Source: a virus (taxonomy: Duplodnaviria; Caudoviricetes). Taken from it: DNA of 45,266 nucleotides. Location: the IMG/VR virus record IMGVR_UViG_3300017778_001280, positions 1-45,266 of that record. One strand, written 5' to 3'. This document shows, piece by piece, positions 8,945 to 35,166 of this stretch. The position numbers were made by a program, and so were the translations under genes. Under the pieces are notes generated by a model that worked only from the letters and a program-made list of their open reading frames with translations, was not told the DNA's origin and ran no database searches. How positions within the stretch are numbered: the stretch's first letter is position 1; every line of letters starts with the position of its first letter.

Positions 8945-9120
8945 GCGACCAGACCACGCGCGAACAGATCGTCTATCTCAGGACGGCCTTAAAAAACCTT
9001 GCCGAATCTGCTGACCGTTACATCGAAGACGGATCATGGATTGAGCATTTATCACTGGACATTGAATTTGCAAAAGGCGTTCTCAAAGCCACCAAACCAA
9101 AGAAGGAAACCACACAATGA
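8941..9120 (+). CDS. Early small protein, 59 aa (MSDQTTREQIVYLRTALKNLAESADRY...)
   Basis: AGGAG RBS, ATGA overlaps at both ends; hand-translated. Confidence 0.75.
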   Translation: MSDQTTREQIVYLRTALKNLAESADRYIEDGSWIEHLSLDIEFAKGVLKATKPKKETTQ

Positions 9121-16020: not shown

Positions 16021-16184
16021 GATTTGCTCCAAAATAAAATGATTCCGGCTACGATCACAATGAAGAAGATCGCATACGTTGGCCAGACTGGCTCTTTACC
16101 ATACGGCCCACTGATGGGCTCACTCTCGCAGTTAAACGCTTCGTGCATAGTGCGTGGGAAGCGCTTTGTTGTATCATTTTCCAT
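16017..16184 (-). CDS. Small membrane protein (TTKRFPRTMHEAF + C-terminal TM helix)
   Basis: CAGGAGG RBS before ATG 16184. Confidence 0.75.
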   Translation of the reverse strand: MENDTTKRFPRTMHEAFNCESEPISGPYGKEPVWPTYAIFFIVIVAGIILFWSKS

Positions 16185-16202
16185 ATTACCTCCTGTATTA
16201 AG

Positions 16203-16232
16203 AATATAACTCATGAATTGCTCATGTGTCAA
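16203..16232 (-). promoter_or_regulatory. sigma70-like promoter for the replication operon
   Basis: TTGACA-N18-TATATT; spacer contains CATGAG twice. Confidence 0.7.
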
Positions 16233-16244
16233 CTGTTATGTTAC

Positions 16245-16565
16245 AAACGAAAAGCCCTCTTACCCGTTGACCCTCCCTCCCCCCAGACAGGCGGACAGAA
16301 GGACCAACGACTCATTATCAAGGAGCTTTGCCCAGTTGTTAAGTGAGCTACCGGCCAGCCAAGCCGCCCTCCCCTGAGATCCCGATAAGGTCAGTTTGCA
16401 CCATCCTTAACGATCAAATCCCAGCGTACTAGGGTATGTGTCTTTCGACTTCCTTGTTTATTCCGTTCGATTGCTCTACTTGGAGGTGCGGGTCACACCG
16501 AGGTTCTGTGTTTCTTGAGTTCAGCCCATACAGGCCATTAGCTAACGCGCTCTGACGGCTGCGTA
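16245..16565 (-). ncRNA. Putative structured non-coding RNA of about 300 nt (unassigned)
   Basis: No credible ORF; GAAA, GCAA and UACG tetraloop hairpins and a G-U-rich terminal helix, all favouring the minus strand. Confidence 0.45.
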
Positions 16566-16570
16566 GGAGG

Positions 16571-16654
16571 TGAGACTGAGACTGCTCACATGTAGCAGTG
16601 TTTTCAAAACATTTACCGTCCAGTGGCGCTAACCCACTGACAGTCTCAGTCTCA
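16571..16654 (-). ncRNA. Structured RNA motif, copy A
   Basis: Perfect 14-bp closing inverted repeat TGAGACTGAGACTG; inner hairpin CAGUGG-GUUAGCG-CCACUG; AAACACUGCUACAUGUG. Confidence 0.55.
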
Positions 16655-16780
16655 AAAACAAAAAGGCCGCTTACAACTGCGTCCGGTCGGAGCTTTGCCT
16701 AATATCTCTCGCCACGAAAGCATTAGGTAAAGCGGAACGCATGTGTAAACGGCCTCAAAGTCATTGCCTCCGACAGCAAC
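16654..16780 (-). ncRNA. Leader RNA/attenuator-like element with loop-bulge complementarity and U-tract
   Basis: 5' hairpin loop GUCGGAG complementary to CUCCGAC bulge in a long stem that ends UUUUUGUUUUU. Confidence 0.55.
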
Positions 16781-16786
16781 AACCCG

Positions 16787-16816
16787 TTTATATCAGATTA
16801 TTTCAACTGATGTCAA
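16787..16816 (-). promoter_or_regulatory. sigma70-like promoter reading into the RNA cassette
   Basis: TTGACA-N18-TATAAA with TGn extension, ending about 7 nt before the 16780 hairpin. Confidence 0.6.
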
Positions 16817-16832
16817 CAAGTTTCAAAATAAA

Positions 16833-16913
16833 GTTGGTGGGCACATAAAGCAGTGTTTGTGTAAAAACCAAACCAAGAAAACCACAAGCGGCGCTAACCC
16901 GCTTGCCACCAAC
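16833..16913 (-). ncRNA. Structured RNA motif, copy B
   Basis: GUUGGUGG/CCACCAAC closing stem; CAAGCGG-GUUAGCG-CCGCUUG; AAACACUGCUUUAUGUG. Confidence 0.55.
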
Positions 16914-16998
16914 ACGACTGAGGACTGAAGCCAGCGGCATCTGGAGATTGCATAGGCTGAAACTCTGCAACCTTTATTCGACAATCCTCATGCGTGTT
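16911..16998 (-). ncRNA. Putative three-way-junction RNA
   Basis: AACACG-CA-UGAGGAUUG / CAGUCCUCA-GU-CGUGUU closing stem with two inner hairpins. Confidence 0.45.
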
Positions 16999-17020
16999 AG
17001 CTCTACCACTGTTAGAGATG

Positions 17021-17050
17021 AAAAAACTCCCGAGTGATTAGCCCGGGAGT
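17021..17050 (-). terminator. Rho-independent terminator
   Basis: ACUCCCGGG-CUAAUCA-CUCGGGAGU followed by a U-run. Confidence 0.8.
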
Positions 17051-17090
17051 AAAGGACAACCCAACAAAGGAGAGTGGCAAATGCTTGCCG
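17021..17090 (-). ncRNA. Putative sRNA of about 70 nt with anti-Shine-Dalgarno segment
   Basis: Upstream TTGCAC-N16-TAGAAT (17124-17097), 5' hairpin GGCAAGCAUUUGCC, CUCUCCUUUG, terminator. Confidence 0.45.
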
Positions 17091-17104
17091 GAATTTATTC
17101 TACA

Positions 17105-17566
17105 TCAATCTCCGTAAAGTGCAATGAACGCCGCATCTGCATACGCTTGACCCACGCCTTTTTTATCTAGCTCACGCCAGTAAGGCCACATCTGTATGGC
17201 CAACGTCCTTGATGCGTCTTTGTCTTTACCCACTAACCCCGCGCGCTTCTTCCATGATTGGGGCGTAACCATCACTACAGAAATCTCAAACGCACCCAGT
17301 ACACCTTGGATCACACCAGCAGAATGGCCAAACGAGAACATCGAGGCCACGCCTTGGCCGGGCATACTACCCACCAGCTCGACATACGCCCTGATGTCAT
17401 CATCACCATACATGCGCGCTTTAATAATTCTTGCAAGCGCTGCCGCATTAACTCTGTTAGACGCGCCAATCTTCATTGTCGGCATCTTGTGCCACTCGAC
17501 AGGAGACTCATCACGCGCAAAAACTATGGCGCCAGATAGTCCCGGGTCTATTCCAATTTTGAGCAT
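17105..17566 (-). CDS. RuvC-like Holliday junction resolvase
   Basis: IGIDPGLSGA, YVELV, SMFSFG, VTPQSWKK, YADAAFIA. Confidence 0.88.
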   Translation of the reverse strand: MLKIGIDPGLSGAIVFARDESPVEWHKMPTMKIGASNRVNAAALARIIKARMYGDDDIRAYVELVGSMPGQGVASMFSFGHSAGVIQGVLGAFEISVVMVTPQSWKKRAGLVGKDKDASRTLAIQMWPYWRELDKKGVGQAYADAAFIALYGD

Positions 17567-17589
17567 ACGAACTTTCTTTAAAATAAATC

Positions 17590-17619
17590 TTGCAAGACAT
17601 GAAATACTATGGGTATAAT
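17590..17619 (+). promoter_or_regulatory. sigma70-like promoter for the recombination operon
   Basis: TTGCAA-N18-TATAAT, preceded by an A-tract. Confidence 0.7.
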
Positions 17620-17646
17620 GTGTTGCCGATTATACAGGAGCAAATT

Positions 17647-18525
17647 GTGATCATCACAAACAAATACAACTTACCACAGACCTTCGTGAACATCATGAAG
17701 CGCCCTACCTACTCAAAGGGTAAGGCAAACATCTCTGCCACAGAGCTGATTAACTCACCACGCATCGTACAGTTACGCAAACTGCATGAGGACAAAATCG
17801 AGACAGACGTTACCGAAATGGTCTGGTCTATCTTTGGTACAGCCATCCACGGCGTACTCGAGCATGGGAAAGACGAGAACCACCTGATCGAAGAACGCCT
17901 CCACGCAAAGATTGATGGATGGTCTATCTCTGGTGCGATTGACCTGCAGATCATCAACGCAGACGGCACAGTCACAATCAACGACTACAAAACCACAGGC
18001 GCTTGGTCTGTTATGAATGAAAAGGTTGACTGGGAGTACCAGCTTAACATCTACGCATGGTTGGTTGAGTACGTCAAGAAGGTTGAGGTTTCTAAGCTTG
18101 AGATCGTAGCCATCATTCGCGATTGGTCACGCAGAGATGCAGCCCTCAAGCCCGGCTACCCAGAAGCCCCCATCAAAGTGATCTCAGTGCCGTTATGGTC
18201 AATGGAACGGCGCGAAGCCTTCATTCTGGGAAAGATTAAAGAACACTCCAACGCATTGTTTGACTTGGAGACAGGAGATGAACTGCCATTTTGTACGCCC
18301 GACCAGATGTGGGAGAAGCCTACAACATACGCAGTGAAAAAGATTGGTAATGTCAAAGCACGTAATGTTTGCAATACCGATGAGGAAGCTCAAGCCAAGG
18401 TGGCTGAGTATGGGAAAGAGTACGAGATAGAGGTTCGTCAGGGTGAAAGGACGCGATGCGCGAACTTCTGCTCTGTCAGTGGCTTCTGTAACCAGTACAA
18501 AGACTATTTATCAACAAAGGAGTAA
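17647..18525 (+). CDS. PD-(D/E)XK exonuclease, Cas4-like with C-terminal Cys cluster
   Basis: GTAIH, SGAIDL, NDYKT, QLNIY, C...RCANFCSVSGFC; start GTG 17647 after CAGGAG. Confidence 0.85.
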   Translation: MIITNKYNLPQTFVNIMKRPTYSKGKANISATELINSPRIVQLRKLHEDKIETDVTEMVWSIFGTAIHGVLEHGKDENHLIEERLHAKIDGWSISGAIDLQIINADGTVTINDYKTTGAWSVMNEKVDWEYQLNIYAWLVEYVKKVEVSKLEIVAIIRDWSRRDAALKPGYPEAPIKVISVPLWSMERREAFILGKIKEHSNALFDLETGDELPFCTPDQMWEKPTTYAVKKIGNVKARNVCNTDEEAQAKVAEYGKEYEIEVRQGERTRCANFCSVSGFCNQYKDYLSTKE

Positions 18526-21277: not shown

Positions 21278-21497
21278 TGGAACAGTGGTAGCTGCCCACA
21301 GTAATCAACTGCGGGACGGCAAAGGCCGTGGGCTCAAAGCTCACGACTACCGTATAGCGTCATTATGTTTTAGGTGCCACAGCGACTTAGACCAAGGCTC
21401 TAAGATGGATAAAGCCCAGAGGATTGAGATGTGGGAGGAAGCACATCGCAAAACTCTGGGTTTATTCTTTGAGCAAGGGATTATTGGACCTTACTAA
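21210..21497 (+). CDS. DUF968/DUF1364-like Zn-binding HNH-type nuclease
   Basis: LPCQHCG...VAAHSN...GKGRGLKAHD...LCFRCHSDLD. Confidence 0.8.
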   Translation: MYRNEKMLKAARLLPCQHCGVSDGTVVAAHSNQLRDGKGRGLKAHDYRIASLCFRCHSDLDQGSKMDKAQRIEMWEEAHRKTLGLFFEQGIIGPY

Positions 21498-24400
21498 CTT
21501 GTTTGTTAAACGCATCCATCTTCTCTTTGATGGCTTCATCTTTGCGTTTAATCTGGGCCTCGGGGGCATCGCGCTCCTTCAAGGCCTTTTTCTCTTTCTT
21601 GAGGCGAGCAATCTCATTCTCAACGTAGTTAGCGCGCCGCCACAGTCTGGCTTCAGGTGACTCTTTGTAGTAAGCCTCTACGCCCTTACCCTTCATGTCT
21701 TTAATGATCCGTTCGTGGTTGGACATTACCTTGATGTTCTCGTAGAACACGCCTGCGATAGCTGCCGGCGTTTTGATGTCGCCATAGAGCTTGCCTGCTA
21801 CTGGTATTTGGTAAGTCTCTACCTTTTCACCAGTGAATTGACTCTTAACGAACTCGCCTGTCTGAATGACAAGCTTACCCACACCACCAGCATACTGGCC
21901 AGCCACATAACTGATCTGATCTGCCGTAGGACTAACCAAACCTATGCCCTTGTCGCCACCACCAGTGATGAAGTTCAGCGCGTAAGCCAAGCCTTGGGAC
22001 ACAAAGTTTGCAGTCTCACGGCTACGCTCATATCCGGGCGAAGGAGCAAGAGCTTTGTCTTCTCTTGAGATAGGACGTCCGAAGGCATCCCTGTTCTCAG
22101 CAATCGCAACGAATGGGTCAACAATGGTTGGTGCCAGTGTCTGAGCAAACGTGCTAGTTCCCAGCGGGTTAACAGAACCAAGTATTGCATTAAAGATGTT
22201 TGTGATGGTTGTCTGAAGGTCGCGTCTACCATTCATTGCGCCAGCTTGAACCATCATGTACTCGGCGATCAGTCTACCAACGTTAGGGAAGACGTTAAAT
22301 CCAAGCGGCATTGGGATGGTCAAGTACTTACCATCGCCTACTGGGATGATCAAGTTCTTGGACTTCACCCACTCAGGAGGCTCATCTGCACCGAGGCCAG
22401 CCATCGCCAAAATAGCGGTCTGCATGACGCCAAGGAACATACCGCCGGCAATGATCTTCTTACCGAGGGAGCTTAACTTGATCTTGCCAGTCTTGTCCTT
22501 TGTGAACAGTGTTTCAACCAAACGCTTTGTACCTTGAATAGCGGCGTTAAAGAACGCATACAAGGCGGCAATCGTCTGAGTGCTTGCACCCTTACGGTTA
22601 AAGTTAACAGTGATGTTCTTAGCTAAACTTGCTGCCTGATCCTCAGACATCTCTTTGTCCAACGCAGCTTTGAACGAAGCCAAACGGACAGCATTCTCTA
22701 GTGCATCGTTATAGTCAGACAGCCAATCAAAGACAGCATAGGCGGCTTGTTTAACGTTGCTACGGCTCAGACGTCCCAGCTCACGGGCAACAATCGTATC
22801 TTTACCCTGACCACGGCTAAACTGCTCGCGGAATCCAGTCTGGCCACCAGCTTTTTGGAACCTCTCAAACAGATCCATCCACTTCTGCATCTCTGGATTT
22901 GTGGCTGGCTTACCGCGCAGGACGCGATAGATAGCTCTAACAGCAGTCATAGAGTCAGCAATGACCTGACCCTTTTTATCTGCAAGAGGCGTACTAGAAA
23001 GGTTGATGGCCGCACCCTGTAAGTCGCGTGTAAAGTTCCACGCACCAAACACAGGGTTGTACTGGGTATTCACAGCCGCCATAAAGCGGGTGATCTCAGC
23101 AACGCTACCAAGTACTTCGTCTAGGTCATTGATGCCAATGTTCTTTAAGGTTTCCACCATGCGCTTGGCGCTTGGGTTGCCCGGGTTAAAGAACACATAG
23201 CGGTCTTCACCATTAATACGCAACGCCAATACGTTAGGCGAGTTACGCATGTTTGGATTGATTTCGTACTTGACAAGCCCAGTCTTCTTATCAATCGCAC
23301 CGGTCTTTGGCTCTTGGAAGATGTTGTTTGCGTCATTGGGGTTCATTCCCAAGGCAACAATCTCATCAATCAACTTGGCCTTGTTCTTAATGGCGTCAGG
23401 GTTGATTGGCTTCCAGAAGTTTGGATTAGGATTCTGAATGGCCAGTGCATACAGCGCCCGTCCAACGCGCACCTTTTCTGCACGGACGATGGCACGTTCG
23501 CGCGCAAGTGCCAAGCTTCCGATGATGTCGCTGACACTCTTGAGCGAACCTACTGCGGCTTTAGTAAATGAACCCTTTACAGCAAAGCCTTGACCCATGC
23601 CACTGCTTGCATTGATAAAATCAAGCTCGTCAGGCTCACGGTTTAAAGGCACATAGAACGGAAGGCTCTCGCGCCAAGTATCAATCGTGCTTTGCTTTTC
23701 CAAGCCGGAGGACACTAACAGCTCTTGAGTGCCAGTAACGATCTCATCAATCTTCTTAGCAAGCTGTTCGTAACTCTTCTTCAGCTCTGGAGTTTTGTCC
23801 AAAGCATCCATGTAGGCATCTACTTCGTCATCAAACAATCCAGAACCTGCAGGATTGGTTGGGTCACGTTTAAGAATAAATGCGTTACGGGCTTTTGCAT
23901 GTCTAGCGTGAAGGTACTTGTTGAACTCCTCAAGCGTTACCCCGCGCTTATCCATGTCCTGAAGCAAAGGACGCAAGTCATTCTTCAGAAAGTCTGTAGT
24001 CTGCTTGGCCGTTCTGCCATGGAATAACTCTTCTTTCAGGTAGGGATTCCAATTATCCTCAATACGGCCAGACTCATTATTGATGGCTTCAATCACACGT
24101 TTGGTGTCGATGTGCTTATCAATGAACTTGTAAACAAGTGTGTCTGTTAACTTTAGATCGTCAGCAGCTTCCCACGTAGACAATGCACCGGGCCCACCTT
24201 TGAAGTTTCTGGAGTACAAAGCTTCGCTTGTGGCGTCTGCCATCTCACCAGAGAACGTTTCAGCATTTTGGAGTAACGCCAAGATGTCGTTGTCAGAGAA
24301 CTGCAGAGTAAATCCAGAGCTTCTTAACCAACCGCGCACGGCTTTGATGACGCGCTGGATGATGCTGTTTTGCATTCCGCGCTCTGCCATCATGGCCACG

Positions 24401-27400
24401 ATTTCTTTAGCACGGCGCTCGGGTGATAGACCGGGTTGTGTGCGGTCTACTTGTGCGGCAATCCCTTGAACAACCTTAGAGGTTTTCTCCAGCTCCTGAA
24501 CATTCTGGACCATGACCTTCATCAAGTCTTTGCCAAGCATGCCTTCTAATGCAGCGTGACCAATGGCCTCATGCGCCAGCACTTCTTGAACACGCTGGGC
24601 GTTTGGCAGGTTATCAGCCACCAAGTAAACAGTGTTACCAGAGAACCAAGCACCTTCCACATCAGCGGGAGCAGCTGCATCAGGCAAGTTGTCAGCAGAC
24701 TGAACCACTTTAACATTGATACCCTTGATTGCTTTGATCTGAGCTTCTACATCCTCAACGCTCTGACCGCCCTCGGGTATAGCGCGAGAGAACATGCCTT
24801 TCTTAGACTCAGAGTCATCAAACTCAACCTTCATTACCTCACGGGCAAGTTGACCAGCGTCAGCTTCCACTGTGGCAGGGTAATGCTTGTGCAAGTTTTT
24901 AATTAGGGCAATGAGGTTTACTGGGTCTGCAATAACATCCCGTGGGGACATCTCATAAGGGCCACCCTTTTTCTTGGCCAATGAAACGCCTTTGATAGAC
25001 GTTACAAACTTCTTAGGCGCATCACCAGAGATAGACAACCTAAAGCCGGTTGGCCTGTAGCTGTCTAGCGTCAATGTCCAAATGTTATTGGCACCACGAA
25101 CAACTTTGGTTGTGTAAGAGTTCTTTGAGTTTTCTGCATACGGCACAAAGCTTGGCAAGTTTGGCAGCAGGTACTGTCCCAAACTATCTGCTATGTCTTT
25201 GTAATCTTCCATCTGAGTGGAGTCATACTTTTTCCGTAGAATTTCATTCCAAGCAGCTAACGTATATTGCACTGCAGCATTAGCGTTACGCATACGCACA
25301 GGCTGATCACTGATGGCAACAGGCTGGTACTTCACAGGCATGATCACGCCAGAGACTTCCTCTGTTTGATTCTGCAAGGTGAACTTAGCGATCTCGCCAC
25401 CATCTTTGTCAAACAACTGAGCTGCTCTCAGGATATTGCCAAGTGCAATGTAACGAGTAGTGCGACCACCCGTCACTGACTTCAGAGCAAAAAATTCGTC
25501 CAGCGGAGGTCTACGCATTGGCTGGCTTCGTTCAATGCTTGGTCCCTCAAGGGCAGCCAGCGTAGGAGCAACGCGCCCCTCTGGGATATTGCGCTTAAGG
25601 ATGATCTGAAAGTTGGATGGCGAGTATGGGTTGCCAGTTTTTGACTTACCAATCCTTGACTTGTCTACCTTAACGCCGATCACAACAGCAGCTGCTGGCA
25701 CGTTGTTAATCATGAATGAATCAAAGCCAGTACCGATGGCAAACTGATTCCTCAAGGCGCTTAAAGTCTTTTCTCTGCGCTCACCAAGAGTAGCAAACTG
25801 TACGTCCAGAGCCTCTTTTTGCTTCGTTAACTCTGCAATATCTTTTTCAGTAGCTCCGGGTGCGGCAATGGCGGCACTCAAAGCTTGCTGTTTTAAAATG
25901 ATTTGGTTACGCACTTCAACAAAAACTGTGTTGAGATCGGTATCAATCTCTTCTACAACTTGTTGGGCAGTGCGACCATTCAAGGCTTGGGCAATATCAT
26001 CTTCAATGTTTTTCTGGGTTGGGATTGAGCCAATCACATCCACGTTGAACTGAGCCATCACCACATCAGACAAGAACGGATTGGTGCTATCTAAGCCTTC
26101 CTCGATCAGGTTCTCTTTGATCATTTCAGCGTTAAGCGGCAGAACACGGCGCTCAAGGGCGTTTGTTCCTGTCGCATTACGCAGCTCAATCTCGGCCAAG
26201 TAACTAGCTTCGATAGAGTCAAAGAACTCCTGTTGGTCTGAGGAGGACAGAAGGCCAGCTGTACCAGAGGCTTTGTGTGCCAAGTCAGAGCCAGCGGCTT
26301 CTGCGGGATCTGCAAATGACTGCTGGGCTAAGAATGCACGGATGTCAGCATGTTCGTTCAGGTACTCGGCAGTAGCAACGTCACCATACCTATTGATAAA
26401 GTCAACGCCGTTCACCTTGGTACTGCTAGAGCCACCCGATGTATTGGACTTCAAGCTTGACAACTTCTTACGAAGCATGGCCAAGATACGGCGCTCGGCT
26501 GGAATGCCGGTAGCCAACATGGTGAATGAAGGCCATTCAACCTGACCAGTGCGGTGGATACGACCCAGCAACTGGATGAATACGCTGATGTCTCCATGAG
26601 GCTGGAGCACCACCATGTGGCGTGGGCGCTGATCAAACGCTTCTGTAGATGCGTGTAACGAGATACCAGTTGCACCAGCTGAGTTAATGATCAATACATC
26701 AATCGGTCCGTTCTCTGACTCTTCACCGTTCTGGAATGAAGAGATCATCTCGGTGCGCTCTGGATTGCTCAGAGCCATGTACTTGGGCTTATCGCCACTG
26801 TAATCTACCGCTGTGTTACGGCCAGTAATCTCTTTGACCACCAGACGTCTGGCTTTAACTCCGGGCGGTGGTGCGTCACCAACGTTAGTCTTGCCGTCAG
26901 CTGTCCACACGTACTTGCCTTCAAGCTGTGTACGCATGTAGTCAATAGGAGCCACAGGCAAATCAGACTGGAAGTCTTTGACCATGTCTGCCAGATTGTC
27001 GTAGCCTGCCCTAATTGACGGGGGCATCAAAGAGTATGGGATCTCAACCTTGACGTTGTCTTTTGGATTCCCAGTAGCAGACTTCAGCGTGATCTTTCTA
27101 GTCGAATCAATCGCTCGCTGAAGCAAAGTCTGCCAACCAAAGTTAGGGATCTCATCGCCTATCTTAATGCCGTTCTTTGCAACAAAGTCATCTAGCGCAC
27201 TACCATTGGTATTCTGCAGACCAACAACAACCTTCTCGCCGTTGTTCATCTTGTCGATCACCATGTCTACGGCAGTCTGAGTCTTAGCAGACAGCAGTAG
27301 CGTACCAATGTAGTTGTGGACCACAGAGGTGAATGGATTACCTTTGGCTTCAGCAAAGGCAGTCGGGCCTTCTTTGCCCAGCATGGAGCCGGGTGGGCCA

Positions 27401-30400
27401 AGCGTGTTAATGATCAAAGCTTGATTAGAAGGATCCTTTGACCACTCTTTAAGTGCACGGTCAGCGTTAACTAACGCTCTAAGAATGGTTGTAACTTTGT
27501 CAACTTCACGGATGTCGCGTGGTGCGTTTGCATCGTCTGTAACAAAGTCCATCTTGACGCCTTCATACGATCTCTCGCGGCGTAACATGGAGCCAGACTC
27601 TACCAACATCTCAGAGGAAACCTGTTGCAGGACGTCAGTCTTAACGCCTTTACCAAACAAGTTGGTCAACTCTTCAGGCGTATTGGCCGCATACCGCAAG
27701 TTGGTATGGATGTACAGAGGCATGTTGTCTGGGCGTTTTGCAAACGTGGCAGACAAATAAACTGCTGGTGGTGGCACCCAATCTTCTGGAGTCTCAACGT
27801 CTTTGCCAAGCAAATCTATGCCCGTCAGCAATGACATAAAGAATGCGTTCTGACCCCTAGAGTCTGAATCAGAAGGGATACCAGCTGCGTTATGGGCTTC
27901 GTCCATAATCAAAACAGCTTTGCCTTGGGCGACCAAAGATGCAATAGCGTCTTGACGTTGAGGTGAGCCAGCACCACCGTTCAGTTGAGAGTAGGCTGTG
28001 AACAAAACGTCCATGCCTTTTGGCAATTCACCGTTCTTTTTGATGTAAGCCATCAAATCAGGACCGGCCTTACCTTTGTTCTCGAACACAGTCTTAATCT
28101 TGCCACCACCCATATTGCGCTGAATGATGGCATTGTTATTGGTCATGCCAATCTTGAACTCTTCGTGTCCAATGTTAATCAAATCTTCGTACATAGATGT
28201 GTACATTGAATCGTTAACAGTTACAAAGATTGGGATCTTCCCGTTCTTCTTAGCCCAGACAATCATGGCAGCAGCTGCACGGCCTTTACCTACGCCAGTG
28301 TCATCACCAATGATGAAGCCTTTACCAAGCTTGTTAGCCTGAATAGCCAGAGCCAAGCCATCAATCTGATAGCCCGCCAATCCCTTGGCCATCTTCTCTA
28401 CCGATGGGTAGCCCAGCTCACTAGCAACAAACTCATCAATGTTGCCAACTTGTGCTTCTAGGTTCTCAAGTGCAGAGTAAGCATGCTGAGACTGCGCGCG
28501 TGGTAAGTAAATGCCATCGCTGGCAAAGCGTGACTTACCAAGGTAGACAACCCGTGACTCTGTATCAATAGGTTCAGACTGAACAGGGGTTTGGTTCTTG
28601 GGGCGTTTTTGTACAACAGTGCGTAGGCTTCCAATAAATGTTTGGATGTGGGCTACGATTGCTTTTCCTAGCTGGGGAACCAACACATTAACAATGTGTT
28701 TAACTCGCGCACTAAAATCACTTATTGTTTCTCCAGCTAAGTTCCATACCTTTTGAATGATTGGCTGTACGTTAGCGTACTCTTGATCACCCTTGCGTGA
28801 GTATTGACCACTGTTAGGGTCATCACTGGTGTTCTTTGTATCTTGGGCAATACGTCCCAATGCTTCACCAACTTGCTTATCCAAACGCTCTGGACTGTTT
28901 TCTGGTGTAGTTTCTTTGGTTACTTGTGGCGCTTTGCCAGTTAAAGCAATTCTTAATTCTTCAACCAAAGCTTGCATCTCTGGAGAAACGTCAACAGCCG
29001 CCGCTTTGGGTTCGCGTTTAGCGCCCGGCTCTTTAGCTTCTCTTGGTTTTCTAGCCCCGCCAGTTGGCTTTTCTCGCTTACCTTTTGTTTCTTTCTCTTC
29101 TAAAGACTCATTGATGTCTTTAAATAATGCTTCTAGGTCTAGGTCAGAAAGTCCTCCCAGTTCATCTCCTGATCCTCCGCCGCCATCTTGGCCTCCTTGG
29201 GTTCCGCCGGCTTCGACACCGCTGGGTCCCCCTCGTTTACCTTTTCCGCTATCCGGCTGCTGTTCAGCAGTACCAGCTCCACCAGCTGTTCCTCGTCCTC
29301 CGCCAGCGGTAGTTCCAGTGCCCCGTCCTGTTTTAGGTAGTTGTTCGCCGACTCCACCGCCCTCTGTAGTCCCCACTCCTGCGCCAGTGCCTCCATCTTC
29401 CACCGCACCGCTTGTTGGTACTCCTCCGGCTGGTTGATTGGCACCGCCAGTAGCTGGCTGTTTCTTTCCGGTACCCACCACGACTTGTTCGCTACGATCA
29501 CTGGTTTGAACATATCTGCTCCAAAGTTCATCAAATGTAGTTATCCGATCAACGGTTGAGTCAATTGGATAAACGTTGTCCGTTTGGTTTCTGCCGGCAA
29601 TAACTAAGACGCGCAACGGCCAATTCGCGCCTTGTTTACGATACAAGCCACCAGCAATTTCATAGTGATCCGCTACGTTATAGTTCCCATATAACCAGTT
29701 CAAGAACACCCGATCTGTGGATGTAATTGTTCCGGGCTTGGGGTGAGCTCCAAGGATCAAGACAGCACGGCCATTGTTAGCCATGGCGCGCAAAGACTTG
29801 GCAGCAATCGCTTGATCAAGCGTACCAATCTTATAGTTCTGACCATTCCAAGACGGGACGTTATCAGGCGTAGACAAAGCTCCAAACGGAGGATTTGCCA
29901 AGACAACATCAACCTCTTGATCTCTTAGGTCTTTTAATTTCTCAAACACATCACCATCAATCACGTTACCGATTTGCATTAGACGCATGTTCTCGGCACG
30001 GTGTGGGTCTAACTCTATTGTTGTGACGTTCTGTGGGTTAGCCGCCACCACCAACATGCCGTTACCACCTGTTGGGTCTAACACTGTTGTAGTGGACTTA
30101 ACACGCGCCAGCATACCTGCTAAGAAAGCAATAGGGAGTGGCGTAGAGTAGGCGTTGTTACTCTTGCTCAGTACAGACTGAACGTCTAATGTAGGTTGGT
30201 TCTGATACAGGTTAACGATGTATTCGTAGATGGCCTTTGTATCTGAGCCCTGCGCTCGCATGTCAGTAATGACTTGGCTAATGTAACGTGTAGCTGCCGC
30301 CTCAAAGTCTTCCTGAGTCTGCTTAAGCTTGACGCGATCACCTTCAAAGTCAGCAATCTTGTATCTTTCAATCTCACGTTGGTCTTTAGCTGGGTTAAAA

Positions 30401-33400
30401 CCAAGCAACTCTGGATTTTGTAAGTAGGCCTTAATACCATACTCAGCCAGCTCACGGTTGTTCTTTGGCCACCAGCCCTGACGCATGTGATAGAACATGG
30501 ACTCAGCCATTGAGCCGTTCTTAATCTCAGGCCACTTAAACAGACCCATCTCTTCCATAATAACGTCAATGCGCTTGGCCATGTCAATGATGTGCTGGTT
30601 GACCTTGCTCATCTGCATGTCAGTTGGCGTCAAGACTCGCTCTTGGCCATCACGCGCTGCTTTAGTACGTTTGGCTTCGTCTTCAGTTTTAAACCAAACC
30701 AAACCACCAGAAGTACCTGAATCCAAGTTATATTGGTCTAGGACTGCATAACCCAGATCTTCAATTTCAACAATCTTGGTGTCCATCTTGTAGGTCTTGA
30801 CTTCCAGAGTCTCTGGGTCAATCTGGGTGAGCATCTGCTTATAGACTTCATTGAGCTTTGGACGCTCTTTACCTAGTGGGTAAATGGTGCCGCCATAACC
30901 ATTCTTTTTGGTAATGTATCCATCAGCAACGGTAGGGCCAACAAGGTATGGGCTGCCACCTTTAGATGCGTCAAACAGCATAGCCTCAAACGCGCGAGAC
31001 AACAGCTCTACGTCTGTGCCCCAGTAGCGAGGCTCTCTGCCTTCGTCTTGGTCTAATTGCTGTGCGTCTTTAAAGTATTGCGTTGTTTTGTCTGAATCTC
31101 TGATAACAGGGGCTGTACCCCAGTAGCCTTGATTTGAGATGGCCGCAAAGAATGCTTTCTTGGGAGGGAGATTACGGTTGTCTGTGCTACCAGCTGTATC
31201 ACGTAACACACCCTTTAGGTAGTTCTCTACTGTCTCAATCTCAATCTGCTTTTTAAGACGCGAGACTGTGCCCGACATTAATAACTTGCCGTTTGGCGTC
31301 TGCTGAAGGTTCCAATCCAAGCCGTGCTGCCACTCATGTCCAAGTGATCCATCACCTTTGGTTTTGGTCAGGTTGATTTCATTAAGCTTGGGGAAGTAAT
31401 GAGCTGCAGTTTTGCCGCCACGACCTTGCGCTCCGATGGCCATCTTGAGCTTCTCGCCCAAGCCCAACATCTTTGGATTGATACCAGAGACATCCGCCAA
31501 GTCATACATGGTGTCATAGATGGCGTTAAGGTGAGCAGCTCGCTCAGTCTGGTTAACCCAGTTACCAAAGTCAATACCACCCGGGAAGAAACCAAACGTA
31601 GTTACAAAATCGTTTGTATCAACATCACGACCCTGTCGGTGATCACGCATACCACGGCGAACAATGTTGCCAAGCTCTGGTGGTACTTCGGTTTCTTTCT
31701 TAACGATACGATTAGTTTGATCGGTTGAATCTTGATTAGCCGCAAACAAGCCATCCATCTTGTTAAATAGATTAACTAAAGCATTTGCTGATAACTTATT
31801 GCGTAGATTTAATCCATCTTCGGTGTACTTTGCAGATGAACCACTTGCTTCCGCATCTTTGATGTACTTTTCTCTTAGTGCCTTATCTAATTCACCAACA
31901 CGGGCGTGTGAGTCAAAGACCGCCTGCAAGCCTTGAAGTGCATCAACATAACTCTGCAAGAGCTTTTGTATTTCCTCTTGCTTACCCTCTTCCAGAGCCA
32001 GTTTAATGGCTTGACGGCTACCAGTCCTGTCCGATACACGGACTATTCTGTTTTCTTTTATAGCCTTTAGCAGGTAATCAGACGCCGGCATGACGAAGCT
32101 TACGATGCCCTCTTTGTACATCATTGCACCAAACGAATTGTCTTTGTTTGAGTCAATGTCAAGTAGCGTGTCCTTGGCAACAGCTGCCAACATCTTAGAG
32201 ATCTGACTGTCTGTAGCGTCTTTAGGAGCTGGAGGTGCTGTAACTTTACCCTTGCGGTTCTTTACAAACTCAGCACCACCACCTTGAATACTTATTTTCT
32301 CCGGCTTGTATAACGCTGATATAGTGACGCGCTCTGGTCCTGTGTAGGATGGATCATCCGTAGCAGAAGGGATAGAACGATCAGTAATGCGGAAACCAAA
32401 CTTAGTTAATGCCTCTTCAATCTTAGAAACATTTGGCAAGTCCACAGGAATACGCAACAGACCTTCTGCAGGGAAGATGATTGGGAAAAGGTCTTCTGCT
32501 ACAGCGTTGCCGTACAGCAAAGTTGAAACCTGATCAGCATTACCCTCTTCCATAGCAACCTTCATAGGCTGCTTGTTAAATTCCTCGAGCTTTTTCTTTT
32601 GCTCGTCAGCGGCTTTCTTTTCTTCTTCAGCTTTAGCTTTTTCTTCAGCAGCTTTAATCTTCTCTTCTTCAGTAAGCTTTACCTTGGGTGGCTTGGGCTC
32701 TTTAGCACCACCAGTAGGAGCAGCCTCACCAGCAGGCTCAGATGGGCCTCCAGCGGGCGCAGATGGACCGCCTGTAGGTTTGGGTTCACCTTCAGCAGGT
32801 TTCTCTTCTGCAGGCTTTACTAACTCTTCTGTAGGTGTCTCTTCCGCAGGCTTTTCTTCAGCGGGTTTTTCTTCCGCTGGCGCTTCCTCGGCTGGCTGTT
32901 CAACAACATCAGCGGGCTTTTCCTCTGGTGGCTTCTCTTCGACTGGTGCCTCTGGAGTCTTCTCTACAGTTCTACCCTTGGTGATCCTGTCAATCGTATT
33001 GCGAATGTTCTCAACGGCCTTTGCGTCACCATTGGCTGCAGGAGATAAACCTTCGTTAGGGTTTATACCTAGCGCCTGTGCAGTGGGCAGTTGACCCATT
33101 TGAGAACGAATGTCTCCAATGGTAGTGTTTAGCTCATCCGCAGCTGCCTTGAGTTCGGGCGAGTTGTAAAAGTTGTTGATGTCTTCTTCACTACCCTTGT
33201 TAAACCAACCGTCTGGACCGTTACCAAAGTATGGGTACCACTGGCCTGTAGGCACATTCTTTTTACCGCCACTACCAGTGCTGATATAGAACGGAACCTT
33301 GACGCCATTAACCTCTTTAACTACAGCAACACGCCTGTTAGTAACAAACGGTTCTGTAACACTACCAGTGGTAGAGGTGGCTGGCGCTTCTGGAGCTGCC

Positions 33401-35166
33401 GGCGCTTCCGTTGGCGCAAGATTACTGCGTAATGCTTTTAGCGTTCCAATAGGATCAGTTCTTAACCCTTCATTGATCTGCATTATCTGTGCGGTGCCAA
33501 GCCTTTTGCCAATCTCAGATTGAGCAAAACGCTCCGGAGTCATTCTTCCTTTATTGGCGCTATCTTCTAAAGCCTCCAATTCAAAGTCAGCATCTTCCAA
33601 AGATAGTGGTTCAAAGCCTTCGTAAGCTGGGCTTTGCAACAACGTGTATTTAAATCCTGTTGGTACAGTAAACTCTGGCGTAGTAACTACAGCTTCTGGC
33701 GTTGTTACCGGAGCCTGTGGCTTAGTCACTGTAGGTGCAGATGGACCACCAGTAGGCGCTACTTGCTCACCAGTCTCTACGGGTTTACCCTCAAGCTCAC
33801 CCATCATCTGGCCTGTGTCTTGGCTCTCATCCAATACTTGCTGGATTAATTCAGTGCTTGGTGGTTGTTCAGTAACTACTGGTTCTGCGACTGCAGTTGG
33901 CGGTGTAACTTGCACACCATCAATGTCTACACTGCCGTCTTGTCTAGTAACTTTTGTAACAGGCTTTCCATCAACATCAACTGTCATAGTGCCGACAACT
34001 GGGCTAGTGGACGGAGGAGTTGTGGGTGCTGGCGCCATACCAGCGGGAGCTCCTTCATCTGGGGGAACTCCAAGTATTTGTTTGTTTTCTGCAAGCAAGC
34101 TCTCAAGGCCGCTTGGTGCTTGTCCAGTCTTACGAAGGCTACCAAAGCCTCCACCGACTGCACCCATACCAAAGCCAGCCAACATGCCCATGGCGGATGC
34201 TTCAGCAACGCCGTCCATGAGTGGCCTGTCCATGGCGTAGTTCATCCACATCTGCTCTTGCGCTGACTGTGGCAACTCCTCAAACACACCCTCAGAGATG
34301 CCAGAGCCCGTAGCTTTCAGAGCAAAGTCTCTTACTGATTTGCCAACGCCCTGCTTGGCTTGTCCGGCAGCTTGACTTGCACCACCAGCCAACAATGTAT
34401 CAATGTCATCAAGGCCAAGCTTGTTAGCCAACTTACCGCCAGCCGCACCAAATGCAGCTGTACCAACGCCAGAACCAACGGCAGATATAACCTGCTTACC
34501 AGACAACAACTTGTCTTTGGATTCCTGACGCATTTGCTCTGCAGCCGCGCCAGCACCAATCAAGCCTTCGCCTGCGGCACCAGCGGCTACAGCGCCAATT
34601 TTAGGAGCTACCTGCAATAAGCCTCGAGCAATACCAGCACCGCCAAGCATTTGTGGTATTGACTCACCAGCTGTCGTAAAGATAGTGCTGGGGTTTTGAA
34701 GAGCTGCTTTAGCTGTGGGTAAGAAACCTTGGGCTTCTCTAACCTTGCGATTAGCCGCTTGTTGAGCCTCAGACAAATATGTGTCGAGAATCTCTCTGGC
34801 TTCCTTGGGTTTAAAGCCAGCCTGCTCAAGAAGCTTACCGGCATAACCCATCGTGGGTAGATCAAGCAAACCAACAGCTGCTTCGGGTAAGCCAATAGCG
34901 CCCTTTAACAATGTGATGCCAACGTCCTTGGCTGTACCGCCTACTGTTCTTTCATATCCCTGTGCTTCTCTAGCCGCAACTTGAGCGCGGTACTCGTCCG
35001 CAGTCATTGTGTTTGGTGCGCGTGGAGCAATAGACTCAAGGCCGGCAGGGGCTGGGGCTGGAGCCGTCTGCGCTGAAAATTTACCGTATCGAGCAAGCAA
35101 CTCAGCTTGCGTGATTCCCTCTGGAACACCAGTAATCGTGGTGCCATCTGGCATCAAGACGTCCAT
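21481..35166 (-). CDS. Giant polyvalent virion protein (DarB/DdrB-like): LPD1-type zincin, N6-adenine methyltransferase, Strawberry-notch SF2 helicase, second zincin, LPD38-like C-terminus
   Basis: HEWQH (31324-31338), VLDPTGGNG and NPPFG (29881-29895), GDDTGVGKG (28282-28308), DEAH (27892-27903), QLLGRIHRTGQ, HEAIGH (24556-24573), NFNRKG (22589-22606); last gene of the ejection-protein cluster. Confidence 0.85.
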   Translation of the reverse strand: MDVLMPDGTTITGVPEGITQAELLARYGKFSAQTAPAPAPAGLESIAPRAPNTMTADEYRAQVAAREAQGYERTVGGTAKDVGITLLKGAIGLPEAAVGLLDLPTMGYAGKLLEQAGFKPKEAREILDTYLSEAQQAANRKVREAQGFLPTAKAALQNPSTIFTTAGESIPQMLGGAGIARGLLQVAPKIGAVAAGAAGEGLIGAGAAAEQMRQESKDKLLSGKQVISAVGSGVGTAAFGAAGGKLANKLGLDDIDTLLAGGASQAAGQAKQGVGKSVRDFALKATGSGISEGVFEELPQSAQEQMWMNYAMDRPLMDGVAEASAMGMLAGFGMGAVGGGFGSLRKTGQAPSGLESLLAENKQILGVPPDEGAPAGMAPAPTTPPSTSPVVGTMTVDVDGKPVTKVTRQDGSVDIDGVQVTPPTAVAEPVVTEQPPSTELIQQVLDESQDTGQMMGELEGKPVETGEQVAPTGGPSAPTVTKPQAPVTTPEAVVTTPEFTVPTGFKYTLLQSPAYEGFEPLSLEDADFELEALEDSANKGRMTPERFAQSEIGKRLGTAQIMQINEGLRTDPIGTLKALRSNLAPTEAPAAPEAPATSTTGSVTEPFVTNRRVAVVKEVNGVKVPFYISTGSGGKKNVPTGQWYPYFGNGPDGWFNKGSEEDINNFYNSPELKAAADELNTTIGDIRSQMGQLPTAQALGINPNEGLSPAANGDAKAVENIRNTIDRITKGRTVEKTPEAPVEEKPPEEKPADVVEQPAEEAPAEEKPAEEKPAEETPTEELVKPAEEKPAEGEPKPTGGPSAPAGGPSEPAGEAAPTGGAKEPKPPKVKLTEEEKIKAAEEKAKAEEEKKAADEQKKKLEEFNKQPMKVAMEEGNADQVSTLLYGNAVAEDLFPIIFPAEGLLRIPVDLPNVSKIEEALTKFGFRITDRSIPSATDDPSYTGPERVTISALYKPEKISIQGGGAEFVKNRKGKVTAPPAPKDATDSQISKMLAAVAKDTLLDIDSNKDNSFGAMMYKEGIVSFVMPASDYLLKAIKENRIVRVSDRTGSRQAIKLALEEGKQEEIQKLLQSYVDALQGLQAVFDSHARVGELDKALREKYIKDAEASGSSAKYTEDGLNLRNKLSANALVNLFNKMDGLFAANQDSTDQTNRIVKKETEVPPELGNIVRRGMRDHRQGRDVDTNDFVTTFGFFPGGIDFGNWVNQTERAAHLNAIYDTMYDLADVSGINPKMLGLGEKLKMAIGAQGRGGKTAAHYFPKLNEINLTKTKGDGSLGHEWQHGLDWNLQQTPNGKLLMSGTVSRLKKQIEIETVENYLKGVLRDTAGSTDNRNLPPKKAFFAAISNQGYWGTAPVIRDSDKTTQYFKDAQQLDQDEGREPRYWGTDVELLSRAFEAMLFDASKGGSPYLVGPTVADGYITKKNGYGGTIYPLGKERPKLNEVYKQMLTQIDPETLEVKTYKMDTKIVEIEDLGYAVLDQYNLDSGTSGGLVWFKTEDEAKRTKAARDGQERVLTPTDMQMSKVNQHIIDMAKRIDVIMEEMGLFKWPEIKNGSMAESMFYHMRQGWWPKNNRELAEYGIKAYLQNPELLGFNPAKDQREIERYKIADFEGDRVKLKQTQEDFEAAATRYISQVITDMRAQGSDTKAIYEYIVNLYQNQPTLDVQSVLSKSNNAYSTPLPIAFLAGMLARVKSTTTVLDPTGGNGMLVVAANPQNVTTIELDPHRAENMRLMQIGNVIDGDVFEKLKDLRDQEVDVVLANPPFGALSTPDNVPSWNGQNYKIGTLDQAIAAKSLRAMANNGRAVLILGAHPKPGTITSTDRVFLNWLYGNYNVADHYEIAGGLYRKQGANWPLRVLVIAGRNQTDNVYPIDSTVDRITTFDELWSRYVQTSDRSEQVVVGTGKKQPATGGANQPAGGVPTSGAVEDGGTGAGVGTTEGGGVGEQLPKTGRGTGTTAGGGRGTAGGAGTAEQQPDSGKGKRGGPSGVEAGGTQGGQDGGGGSGDELGGLSDLDLEALFKDINESLEEKETKGKREKPTGGARKPREAKEPGAKREPKAAAVDVSPEMQALVEELRIALTGKAPQVTKETTPENSPERLDKQVGEALGRIAQDTKNTSDDPNSGQYSRKGDQEYANVQPIIQKVWNLAGETISDFSARVKHIVNVLVPQLGKAIVAHIQTFIGSLRTVVQKRPKNQTPVQSEPIDTESRVVYLGKSRFASDGIYLPRAQSQHAYSALENLEAQVGNIDEFVASELGYPSVEKMAKGLAGYQIDGLALAIQANKLGKGFIIGDDTGVGKGRAAAAMIVWAKKNGKIPIFVTVNDSMYTSMYEDLINIGHEEFKIGMTNNNAIIQRNMGGGKIKTVFENKGKAGPDLMAYIKKNGELPKGMDVLFTAYSQLNGGAGSPQRQDAIASLVAQGKAVLIMDEAHNAAGIPSDSDSRGQNAFFMSLLTGIDLLGKDVETPEDWVPPPAVYLSATFAKRPDNMPLYIHTNLRYAANTPEELTNLFGKGVKTDVLQQVSSEMLVESGSMLRRERSYEGVKMDFVTDDANAPRDIREVDKVTTILRALVNADRALKEWSKDPSNQALIINTLGPPGSMLGKEGPTAFAEAKGNPFTSVVHNYIGTLLLSAKTQTAVDMVIDKMNNGEKVVVGLQNTNGSALDDFVAKNGIKIGDEIPNFGWQTLLQRAIDSTRKITLKSATGNPKDNVKVEIPYSLMPPSIRAGYDNLADMVKDFQSDLPVAPIDYMRTQLEGKYVWTADGKTNVGDAPPPGVKARRLVVKEITGRNTAVDYSGDKPKYMALSNPERTEMISSFQNGEESENGPIDVLIINSAGATGISLHASTEAFDQRPRHMVVLQPHGDISVFIQLLGRIHRTGQVEWPSFTMLATGIPAERRILAMLRKKLSSLKSNTSGGSSSTKVNGVDFINRYGDVATAEYLNEHADIRAFLAQQSFADPAEAAGSDLAHKASGTAGLLSSSDQQEFFDSIEASYLAEIELRNATGTNALERRVLPLNAEMIKENLIEEGLDSTNPFLSDVVMAQFNVDVIGSIPTQKNIEDDIAQALNGRTAQQVVEEIDTDLNTVFVEVRNQIILKQQALSAAIAAPGATEKDIAELTKQKEALDVQFATLGERREKTLSALRNQFAIGTGFDSFMINNVPAAAVVIGVKVDKSRIGKSKTGNPYSPSNFQIILKRNIPEGRVAPTLAALEGPSIERSQPMRRPPLDEFFALKSVTGGRTTRYIALGNILRAAQLFDKDGGEIAKFTLQNQTEEVSGVIMPVKYQPVAISDQPVRMRNANAAVQYTLAAWNEILRKKYDSTQMEDYKDIADSLGQYLLPNLPSFVPYAENSKNSYTTKVVRGANNIWTLTLDSYRPTGFRLSISGDAPKKFVTSIKGVSLAKKKGGPYEMSPRDVIADPVNLIALIKNLHKHYPATVEADAGQLAREVMKVEFDDSESKKGMFSRAIPEGGQSVEDVEAQIKAIKGINVKVVQSADNLPDAAAPADVEGAWFSGNTVYLVADNLPNAQRVQEVLAHEAIGHAALEGMLGKDLMKVMVQNVQELEKTSKVVQGIAAQVDRTQPGLSPERRAKEIVAMMAERGMQNSIIQRVIKAVRGWLRSSGFTLQFSDNDILALLQNAETFSGEMADATSEALYSRNFKGGPGALSTWEAADDLKLTDTLVYKFIDKHIDTKRVIEAINNESGRIEDNWNPYLKEELFHGRTAKQTTDFLKNDLRPLLQDMDKRGVTLEEFNKYLHARHAKARNAFILKRDPTNPAGSGLFDDEVDAYMDALDKTPELKKSYEQLAKKIDEIVTGTQELLVSSGLEKQSTIDTWRESLPFYVPLNREPDELDFINASSGMGQGFAVKGSFTKAAVGSLKSVSDIIGSLALARERAIVRAEKVRVGRALYALAIQNPNPNFWKPINPDAIKNKAKLIDEIVALGMNPNDANNIFQEPKTGAIDKKTGLVKYEINPNMRNSPNVLALRINGEDRYVFFNPGNPSAKRMVETLKNIGINDLDEVLGSVAEITRFMAAVNTQYNPVFGAWNFTRDLQGAAINLSSTPLADKKGQVIADSMTAVRAIYRVLRGKPATNPEMQKWMDLFERFQKAGGQTGFREQFSRGQGKDTIVARELGRLSRSNVKQAAYAVFDWLSDYNDALENAVRLASFKAALDKEMSEDQAASLAKNITVNFNRKGASTQTIAALYAFFNAAIQGTKRLVETLFTKDKTGKIKLSSLGKKIIAGGMFLGVMQTAILAMAGLGADEPPEWVKSKNLIIPVGDGKYLTIPMPLGFNVFPNVGRLIAEYMMVQAGAMNGRRDLQTTITNIFNAILGSVNPLGTSTFAQTLAPTIVDPFVAIAENRDAFGRPISREDKALAPSPGYERSRETANFVSQGLAYALNFITGGGDKGIGLVSPTADQISYVAGQYAGGVGKLVIQTGEFVKSQFTGEKVETYQIPVAGKLYGDIKTPAAIAGVFYENIKVMSNHERIIKDMKGKGVEAYYKESPEARLWRRANYVENEIARLKKEKKALKERDAPEAQIKRKDEAIKEKMDAFNKQVSKVQ
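29139..29513 (-). CDS. Candidate nested out-of-frame gene (124 aa) inside the giant gene
   Basis: GGAG-N5-ATG; acidic amphipathic-helical product; extent matches the Gly-rich linker of the host frame. Confidence 0.55.
   Translation of the reverse strand: MFKPVIVANKSWWVPERNSQLLAVPINQPEEYQQAVRWKMEALAQEWGLQRAVESANNYLKQDGALELPLAEDEEQLVELVLLNSSRIAEKVNEGDPAVSKPAEPKEAKMAAEDQEMNWEDFLT

Follow-up and report, generated by a model that had tools for sequence, protein, structure and literature searches.

A widespread and apparently undescribed family of phage RNAs combining a kissing-loop scaffold with a variable linker

The two copies of a structured RNA motif found in a phage record of 45,266 nt (hereafter the window, the whole stretch analysed; completeness 72% by CheckV) belong to a real and widespread RNA family, which apparently has not been described so far. 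As judged from the comparison of its members, the RNA folds into a three-way junction that is closed by a kiss of four bases between two loops, the linker forming the long junction strand. The window carries genes for a portal, a terminase, GroES, a helicase, a primase, a resolvase, an exonuclease and an Erf-like protein, as well as the gene of a 4,561-aa protein (21481-35166, minus strand) whose only matches are PHROGs of unknown function, and ARAGORN found no tRNA in it. The nearest relatives of its terminase are those of HTVC027P, DSL-LC04, 023Pt_psg01 and HTVC023P, with an identity of 52-57%. Both copies lie in a gene-free minus-strand stretch 3′ of the resolvase gene. The original prediction had placed them at 16571-16654 and 16833-16913, which we confirmed, but the strand is the minus strand. 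The repetition is not due to chance, since the window has exactly two occurrences of the two-part pattern, which recurs in an estimated 200-700 IMG/VR stretches. The elements of the two copies are the following:

16571-16654, minus strand: copy A of the scaffold RNA; 69.3 bits with model R1, whose training alignment includes copy A itself
16654-16641 with 16584-16571, minus strand: closing stem P0 of copy A, 14-bp perfect pairing
16639-16621, minus strand: hairpin P1 of copy A, CAGUGG-GUUAGCG-CCACUG, with the loop GUUAGCG at 16633-16627
16604-16620, minus strand: variable linker of copy A, 17 nt, without an anti-Shine-Dalgarno (anti-SD) word
16600-16598 (CAC) with 16589-16587 (GUG), minus strand: mini-hairpin P2 of copy A, AAACAC-UGCUACAU-GUG, with the loop UGCUACAU
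16833-16913, minus strand: copy B of the scaffold RNA; 64.5 bits with model R1, whose training alignment includes copy B itself
16913-16906 with 16840-16833, minus strand: closing stem P0 of copy B, 8 bp
16905-16885, minus strand: hairpin P1 of copy B, CAAGCGG-GUUAGCG-CCGCUUG, with the loop at 16898-16892
16859-16884, minus strand: variable linker of copy B, 26 nt; related linkers of its family have UUCCU in the same position
16855-16853 with 16844-16842, minus strand: mini-hairpin P2 of copy B, AAACAC-UGCUUUAU-GUG

The closing stems had been described as perfectly paired; that of copy A is perfect over 14 bp, and that of copy B measures 8 bp. The P2 loop has the form UGCUnnAU in both copies. 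When compared with shuffles by energy folding, copy A gave a z of -4.54 and copy B a z of only -1.80. The 3-bp P2 of copy B was not predicted by energy folding and the kiss is beyond the reach of that method; the support for both comes from covariation in relatives.

The first search pattern held the core fixed, and later scans freed positions within it so that core covariation could show. In an alignment of 61 members, 92.6% of the cells were paired against 74.7% after shuffling, none of 500 shuffles being as high, while controls with slid partners gave 28-47%. The closing stem P0 and the first hairpin P1 covary; P0 measures 6-21 bp in all 100 of 100 members and P1 5-9 bp in 95 of them. When the scan left both positions of the middle P2 pair free, all of the 116 distinct cores had a Watson-Crick pair there (A-U in 85, G-C in 15, U-A in 15 and C-G in 1). 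For the kiss, the first base was forced to be other than A and its partner left free, and the A-U pair was found as G-C in all eight variants. The last kiss pair is G-U in the family and G-C in phage vB_Sb_QDWS (QDWS), where four kiss pairs are Watson-Crick; when the U of this wobble position was required to be any other base, the scan gave 0 matches. Variants at the second base of the kiss loop were also sought, and the 11 matches were discarded, none having the stems of the family by eye. The covariation of the stems, of P2 and of the kiss variants backs the proposed pairing of loop AGCG with UGCU and the idea of a constant scaffold that shows a variable segment. The AAA that had been counted in the fixed core does not belong there, the bases before P2 varying widely among relatives. 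Covariation is blind to whether the kiss forms within one molecule or between two. A second pairing may exist between the loop GUU and a purine-purine-C after P2, where two purines are present in 87 of 100 members, although it is not possible in copy B.

Homologs beyond the two copies were found with a covariance model and pattern searches. The strict two-part pattern matched 120 IMG/VR loci (about 200 estimated, 88 distinct cores) and the relaxed one 121 loci, with about 700 stretches estimated. Several proteobacterial genomes also contain the core. Seven GTDB contigs match, some in records titled Variovorax, Achromobacter and Vreelandella, and when 141 Burkholderiales genomes were sampled the covariance model was positive in two, of which one is the Variovorax genome already found. 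Three loci (L201, L202 and L203) share the same phage-like region with identical motif flanks under the titles Aeriscardovia, Vreelandella and Clostridia, so that these host labels are doubtful. Divergent members occur in cultured phages, namely the Burkholderia phages Bcep176 and KL4, the latter with a second, weaker copy, and QDWS; in all three the copies lie on the same strand as the flanking early genes. A gene annotated as a retron-type reverse transcriptase (17353-18384, minus strand) is located about 1.6 kb downstream of the motif copy in QDWS (L509). The phages that host the motif are podovirus-like, lambda-like and temperate, carry it in unrelated genome places and, among relatives, carry it patchily: no match was found in the 50 of 61.5 kb examined of DSL-LC04, the terminase relative. 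Several records have two copies with different linkers. When copy A or its region was compared by blastn with cultured phages and plasmids, no family member was recovered, and the cultured phages were reached by blastn only from a divergent IMG/VR variant.

A match to a known Rfam family would remove the novelty of the motif, and there was none at its position, whether the whole window was searched at the gathering score or the part 16150-17150 at E up to 10; on 20 + 20 relative loci Rfam gave nothing at the motif and only tRNAs and two weak matches elsewhere. The literature search did not turn up a description of the motif, although an unnamed entry in the alignments of PMC10690425 or in the supplement of PMC5737381 is still possible; three of the six supplement files of PMC10690425, a 2023 IMG/VR screen, contain no match.

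Linkers were cut with up to two following adenines and grouped into families by shared 10-mers, one linker per family being used for enrichment. We obtained 177 distinct linkers of 12-44 nt in 81 families. They had been called U-rich, but the bias is only mild overall (U 0.32 and A 0.30 across linkers). An anti-SD 5-mer is present in 24.3 of the 81 families compared with 4.6 ± 2.1 after shuffling (0 of 2000 shuffles), while sense Shine-Dalgarno (SD) 5-mers are not enriched (6.0 against 6.2 of 81 families). The anti-SD words, found in 68 of the 177 linkers, mostly start 0-8 nt after P1. The other 109 linkers have none, those of copies A and B in the window included, but the relatives of copy B do carry one. 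The antisense option of the original prediction draws support from the enrichment at the family level. The gene at 9117, whose ribosome-binding region it found partly complementary to the copy B linker, is not supported as a target. The 3′ part of the copy A linker is combined with five distinct closing stems, and the phages concerned differ in their neighbouring genes; one linker end shared by several closing stems and neighbourhoods fits either a common outside target or an exchange of modules via the constant core. We also considered a Met-Phe-stop minigene for the linkers of the copy A family and rejected it, its ATG being often lost. In the four most divergent members (L501, L507, L508 and L509) the linkers end alike, and the complement of this shared end reads like a start region with Met-Lys-Ala behind it; no matching conserved host gene was found in 401 sampled genomes.

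Seeds from five linker families were searched outside the phages' own genomes, in tests that need long near-perfect matches and a guessed host and that would miss short or two-part seeds. Matches were at about the control level and in unrelated genes in sets of 301, 301, 331 and 401 sampled Burkholderiales genomes, as well as in IMG/VR together with one metagenome scan (3 matches), and those in the motif-bearing genomes G001, G004 and G014 were unrelated and at chance level. A linker at position 1501 of a Variovorax locus (L359, genome G001) can pair over 12 nt, with one G-U, with the ribosome-binding site (RBS) of a 174-aa gene elsewhere in the same genome, a single case that may be due to chance. 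This gene presumably resembles a phage tail tube gene.

Of 42 upstream clusters, 14 have a -10 box at a distance of 3-11 nt from the start of P0, compared with 2.2 for random sites and 5.3 for shuffles (maximum 14 in 500), and some of the members without a -10 box of their own come after another RNA. Genes for tRNA occur within 1.5 kb in seven of 60 loci, in one of them (L007) a few bases after P0. No protein family travels with the motif, the commonest neighbour family being present in 36 of 88 loci, and comparison of the loci points to a stand-alone placement with no co-encoded protein. In all eight RNA runs examined, out of 22 listed, relatives' short contigs (depth 2-11) cover parts of 16250-16780, with DNA carry-over possible; several extend into copy A, and the contigs give neither strand nor ends. 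No contig covers copy B in the same eight runs, which is uninformative on its expression. The part most often under contigs is 16250-16560 (minus strand), a conserved non-coding stretch downstream of copy A that is swapped as a block among relatives.

The two copies are part of a cluster of RNAs, whose other elements are listed here:

16665-16756, minus strand: C4/CI-like structured RNA between the copies, fold z -4.42 and -5.36
16787-16816, minus strand: likely sigma-70 promoter (TTGACA, 18 nt, TG-n-TATAAA), read from the sequence, with similar boxes in relatives
16558-16572, minus strand: tail that follows copy A, CACCUCCUACGCAGC; it is anti-SD-like and can in part pair with the C4-like RNA's leader
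16909-17000, minus strand: further three-way-junction RNA directly upstream of copy B, fold z -4.27
17020-17090, minus strand: candidate anti-SD small RNA with terminator after the resolvase gene, outside the scaffold family

The C4/CI-like RNA gave no match to the Rfam C4 model. The 7-mer CUCCGAC (16692-16686) in its internal loop has its complement, GUCGGAG (16774-16768), in the leader, and the two change together: a complementarity of at least 7 nt is found in 16 of 22 relatives compared with 33 of 462 cross pairs. It is followed by a U-rich tract (16664-16655), and copy A comes next. The promoter at 16787-16816, for which the promoter scan gave a neighbouring alternative at 16826-16797, likely drives the C4-like RNA and, by read-through, copy A. 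Pairing of the 16558-16572 tail with the leader hints at an attenuation switch around copy A. The closing-stem type of the RNA at 16909-17000 encloses the scaffold core itself in other loci (L386, L433, L383, L413 and L479), and this sharing suggests that the RNA modules are exchangeable and occur in arrays. The candidate at 17020-17090 has a weak Rfam likeness to the Betaproteobacteria toxic sRNA (19.1 bits, gathering score 50).

We consider that there is about an even chance that the scaffold is a trans-acting antisense RNA, with the logic of C4 in a different fold and aimed at non-self mRNAs. The RNA would be transcribed and then cut out of longer transcripts, with its ends protected by the long closing stem. 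Clamped by the kiss, the three-way junction would hold the linker out as an unpaired loop, which the near-invariant core would keep exposed and stable. This core may be read by a host factor. The exchangeable loop of 12-44 nt would then pair in trans over the RBS and nearby bases of an mRNA and block the loading of ribosomes, recognition probably relying on short and possibly two-part seeds, as in C4. The targets would be genes of the host or of co-infecting elements and probably not those of the phage itself. Counting against this reading, the searches described here gave no target, 109 of the 177 linkers lack an anti-SD 5-mer, a weak own-locus trend persists, and the core is conserved more strictly than antisense pairing alone requires.

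Alternatively, the RNA could dampen early genes of the phage itself by pairing briefly and imperfectly with many RBSs at once, copy B and the 9117 gene being one case, which seems unlikely to us. The complementarity noted earlier between the copy B linker and 9091-9114 is real as sequence (-27 kcal/mol), and this site, in its own genome, is the best start-region match of copy B among 18 phage records (-27.0 against a mean of -22.9 kcal/mol). Many linkers also resemble generic start regions of this phage group, and there is a weak own-locus trend within 10 kb (mean midrank 0.44, p 0.07-0.08, 70 linkers). However, own-phage start regions were not favoured over 22 guide-genome pairs from the 18 records, the ranks being even (mean 0.51, two at rank 0; the window is 72% complete), and own-phage matches within 10 kb of the motif showed no enrichment. 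The 9117 gene itself did not hold up as a target of copy B: the site shows no covariation and is the coding end of the upstream gene, one relative (L124) has it together with another linker, whose pairing there reaches only -14.9 kcal/mol, and another (L183) keeps it with no copy B in the DNA examined. Copy A has no good own-phage match (best -13.5 kcal/mol), and the same linker is found in phages with different gene neighbourhoods. Two further candidates were dropped, a 13-nt match in L163 that falls inside a coding region and the start region after the exonuclease gene, which by eye does not track the linkers. Very improbable, too, is a role in cis, as a leader or antisense element of the adjacent gene. 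An SD followed by ATG within 30 nt after the closing stem is seen in about a quarter of the upstream clusters, but the start region downstream of a motif pairs worse than others with its linker (mean rank 0.62, 30 cases), downstream genes are unrelated, the window copies have no gene directly downstream, and in only one of 89 cases does the element coincide with the start of an opposite-strand gene that has an SD.

No specific mRNA is needed if the core and a U-rich or 16S-tail-like loop act as a decoy that titrates a host protein such as Hfq, ProQ, S1, a nuclease or a defence sensor, a possibility to which we likewise attach a low probability. It would fit the near-invariant core in very different phages with no co-encoded protein, the linkers that for the most part lack anti-SD words, the negative target searches, and the phage sRNA VpdS, which according to PMC12197685 competes for Hfq. 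It leaves unexplained why there are 81 linker families, why their anti-SD bias is strand-specific and placed at a preferred distance from P1, and why one genome has two different linkers. We disfavour, as improbable, a small ribozyme or self-processing unit, for example a rearranged twister-like fold, that would cut itself or a bound mRNA and free the neighbouring RNAs. The core is compact and pseudoknotted with invariant unpaired bases, and the motif is often found among other small RNAs and in some loci near tRNA genes. But Rfam searches with E up to 10 or 5 gave no match to a ribozyme family, and a published search for rearranged twisters (PMC10085705) reports no good candidates. The base after P2 is not an invariant G (G in 16 of 116 cores, GA in 3 of 116), the adenines before P2 vary, the order of the blocks is unlike that of twister, and the anti-SD bias would be unexplained unless cutting took place in trans. 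The packaging RNA of phi29 forms rings by an intermolecular kiss. A similar ring is hardly probable here, even though a three-way junction with two complementary 4-nt loops would allow it and the covariation fits a kiss of either kind, since the motif occurs patchily and in unrelated places of podovirus-like, lambda-like and temperate phages, with none in the 50 kb of DSL-LC04, and since a ring would give the variable anti-SD loop no role.

The antisense reading has a bolder and more doubtful form, in which the RNA would be a protein-free, programmable guide-RNA scaffold whose swapped loops silence or cut the mRNAs of host defences or rival phages, its core being either catalytic or recognised by a conserved host factor, and which would amount to an RNA-only counter-defence across hundreds of phages. 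Few phage small RNAs are known to act on other genomes, each of them an isolated case. Here a single fold, fixed even to the level of a covarying tertiary kiss, is shared by hundreds of phage records, and its loops fall into at least 81 families. Should the loops be guides, their targets would tell which genes of the host or of rivals it matters most for phages to silence, and a scaffold of 80-100 nt might serve as a compact programmable repressor for Betaproteobacteria. The copies in KL4, Bcep176 and QDWS and on the chromosome of Variovorax sp. W6 make the scaffold directly testable.

Among known RNAs, the purine riboswitch aptamer and the phi29 pRNA also combine a three-way junction with a loop-loop kiss. 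The scaffold differs from the former in having no conserved ligand pocket at the junction, which is its most variable part, and no fixed downstream gene, and from the latter in having no link to packaging genes. We take its P2 strand and P1 loop to resemble P2 and L4 of twister. Like the scaffold, twister is a small pseudoknotted RNA present in phages, and it has a conserved catalytic G and A (PMC5408937); these are not found in the scaffold under a tentative mapping of positions, the block order differs, a second pseudoknot could form in most members but not in copy B, and the Rfam twister models had no match in the window or in the relative loci. The trans-acting anti-SD sRNAs DicF, VpdS and 24B_1 (as presented in PMC12197685) and the Betaproteobacteria toxic sRNA (RF02278) are of a related kind, being small RNA genes with CU-rich seeds, their own promoter or processing from an operon, and possible host targets. 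They are single families, usually ending in a terminator hairpin and U tail, whereas the pseudoknotted scaffold is common to at least 81 linker families and lacks its own terminator.

The closest systems are C4 of phages P1 and P7, listed as RF01695 in PMC2864571, the CI RNA of P4 and the C4-like Group 1 sRNAs of Acinetobacter (PMC5320573; PMC2864571). C4 as described in PMC5320573 places one loop on the RBS and uses a loop of 7-11 bp for specificity. Membership of the scaffold RNA in the C4 family is ruled out by the model, the fold and the own-operon targets. The C4 model RF01695 matched neither the window at the gathering score, nor 16150-17150 at E up to 10, nor any of the 20 + 20 relative loci; C4 has two short loops, a′ and b′, and three stems, in contrast to the three-way junction with kissing hairpins and a single loop of 12-44 nt; and the scaffold lacks flanking a/b targets in its own operon, the tests for targets in its own genome being negative. 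What the two have in common is that they are phage-borne RNAs of about 80-100 nt with a 5′/3′ closing stem, a constant fold and a variable single-stranded segment for specificity, part of it directed at the RBS in C4 and perhaps also here (anti-SD words in 24.3 of 81 families against 4.6, and absent from 109 of 177 linkers), and in the window a C4-like RNA is found directly upstream of copy A.
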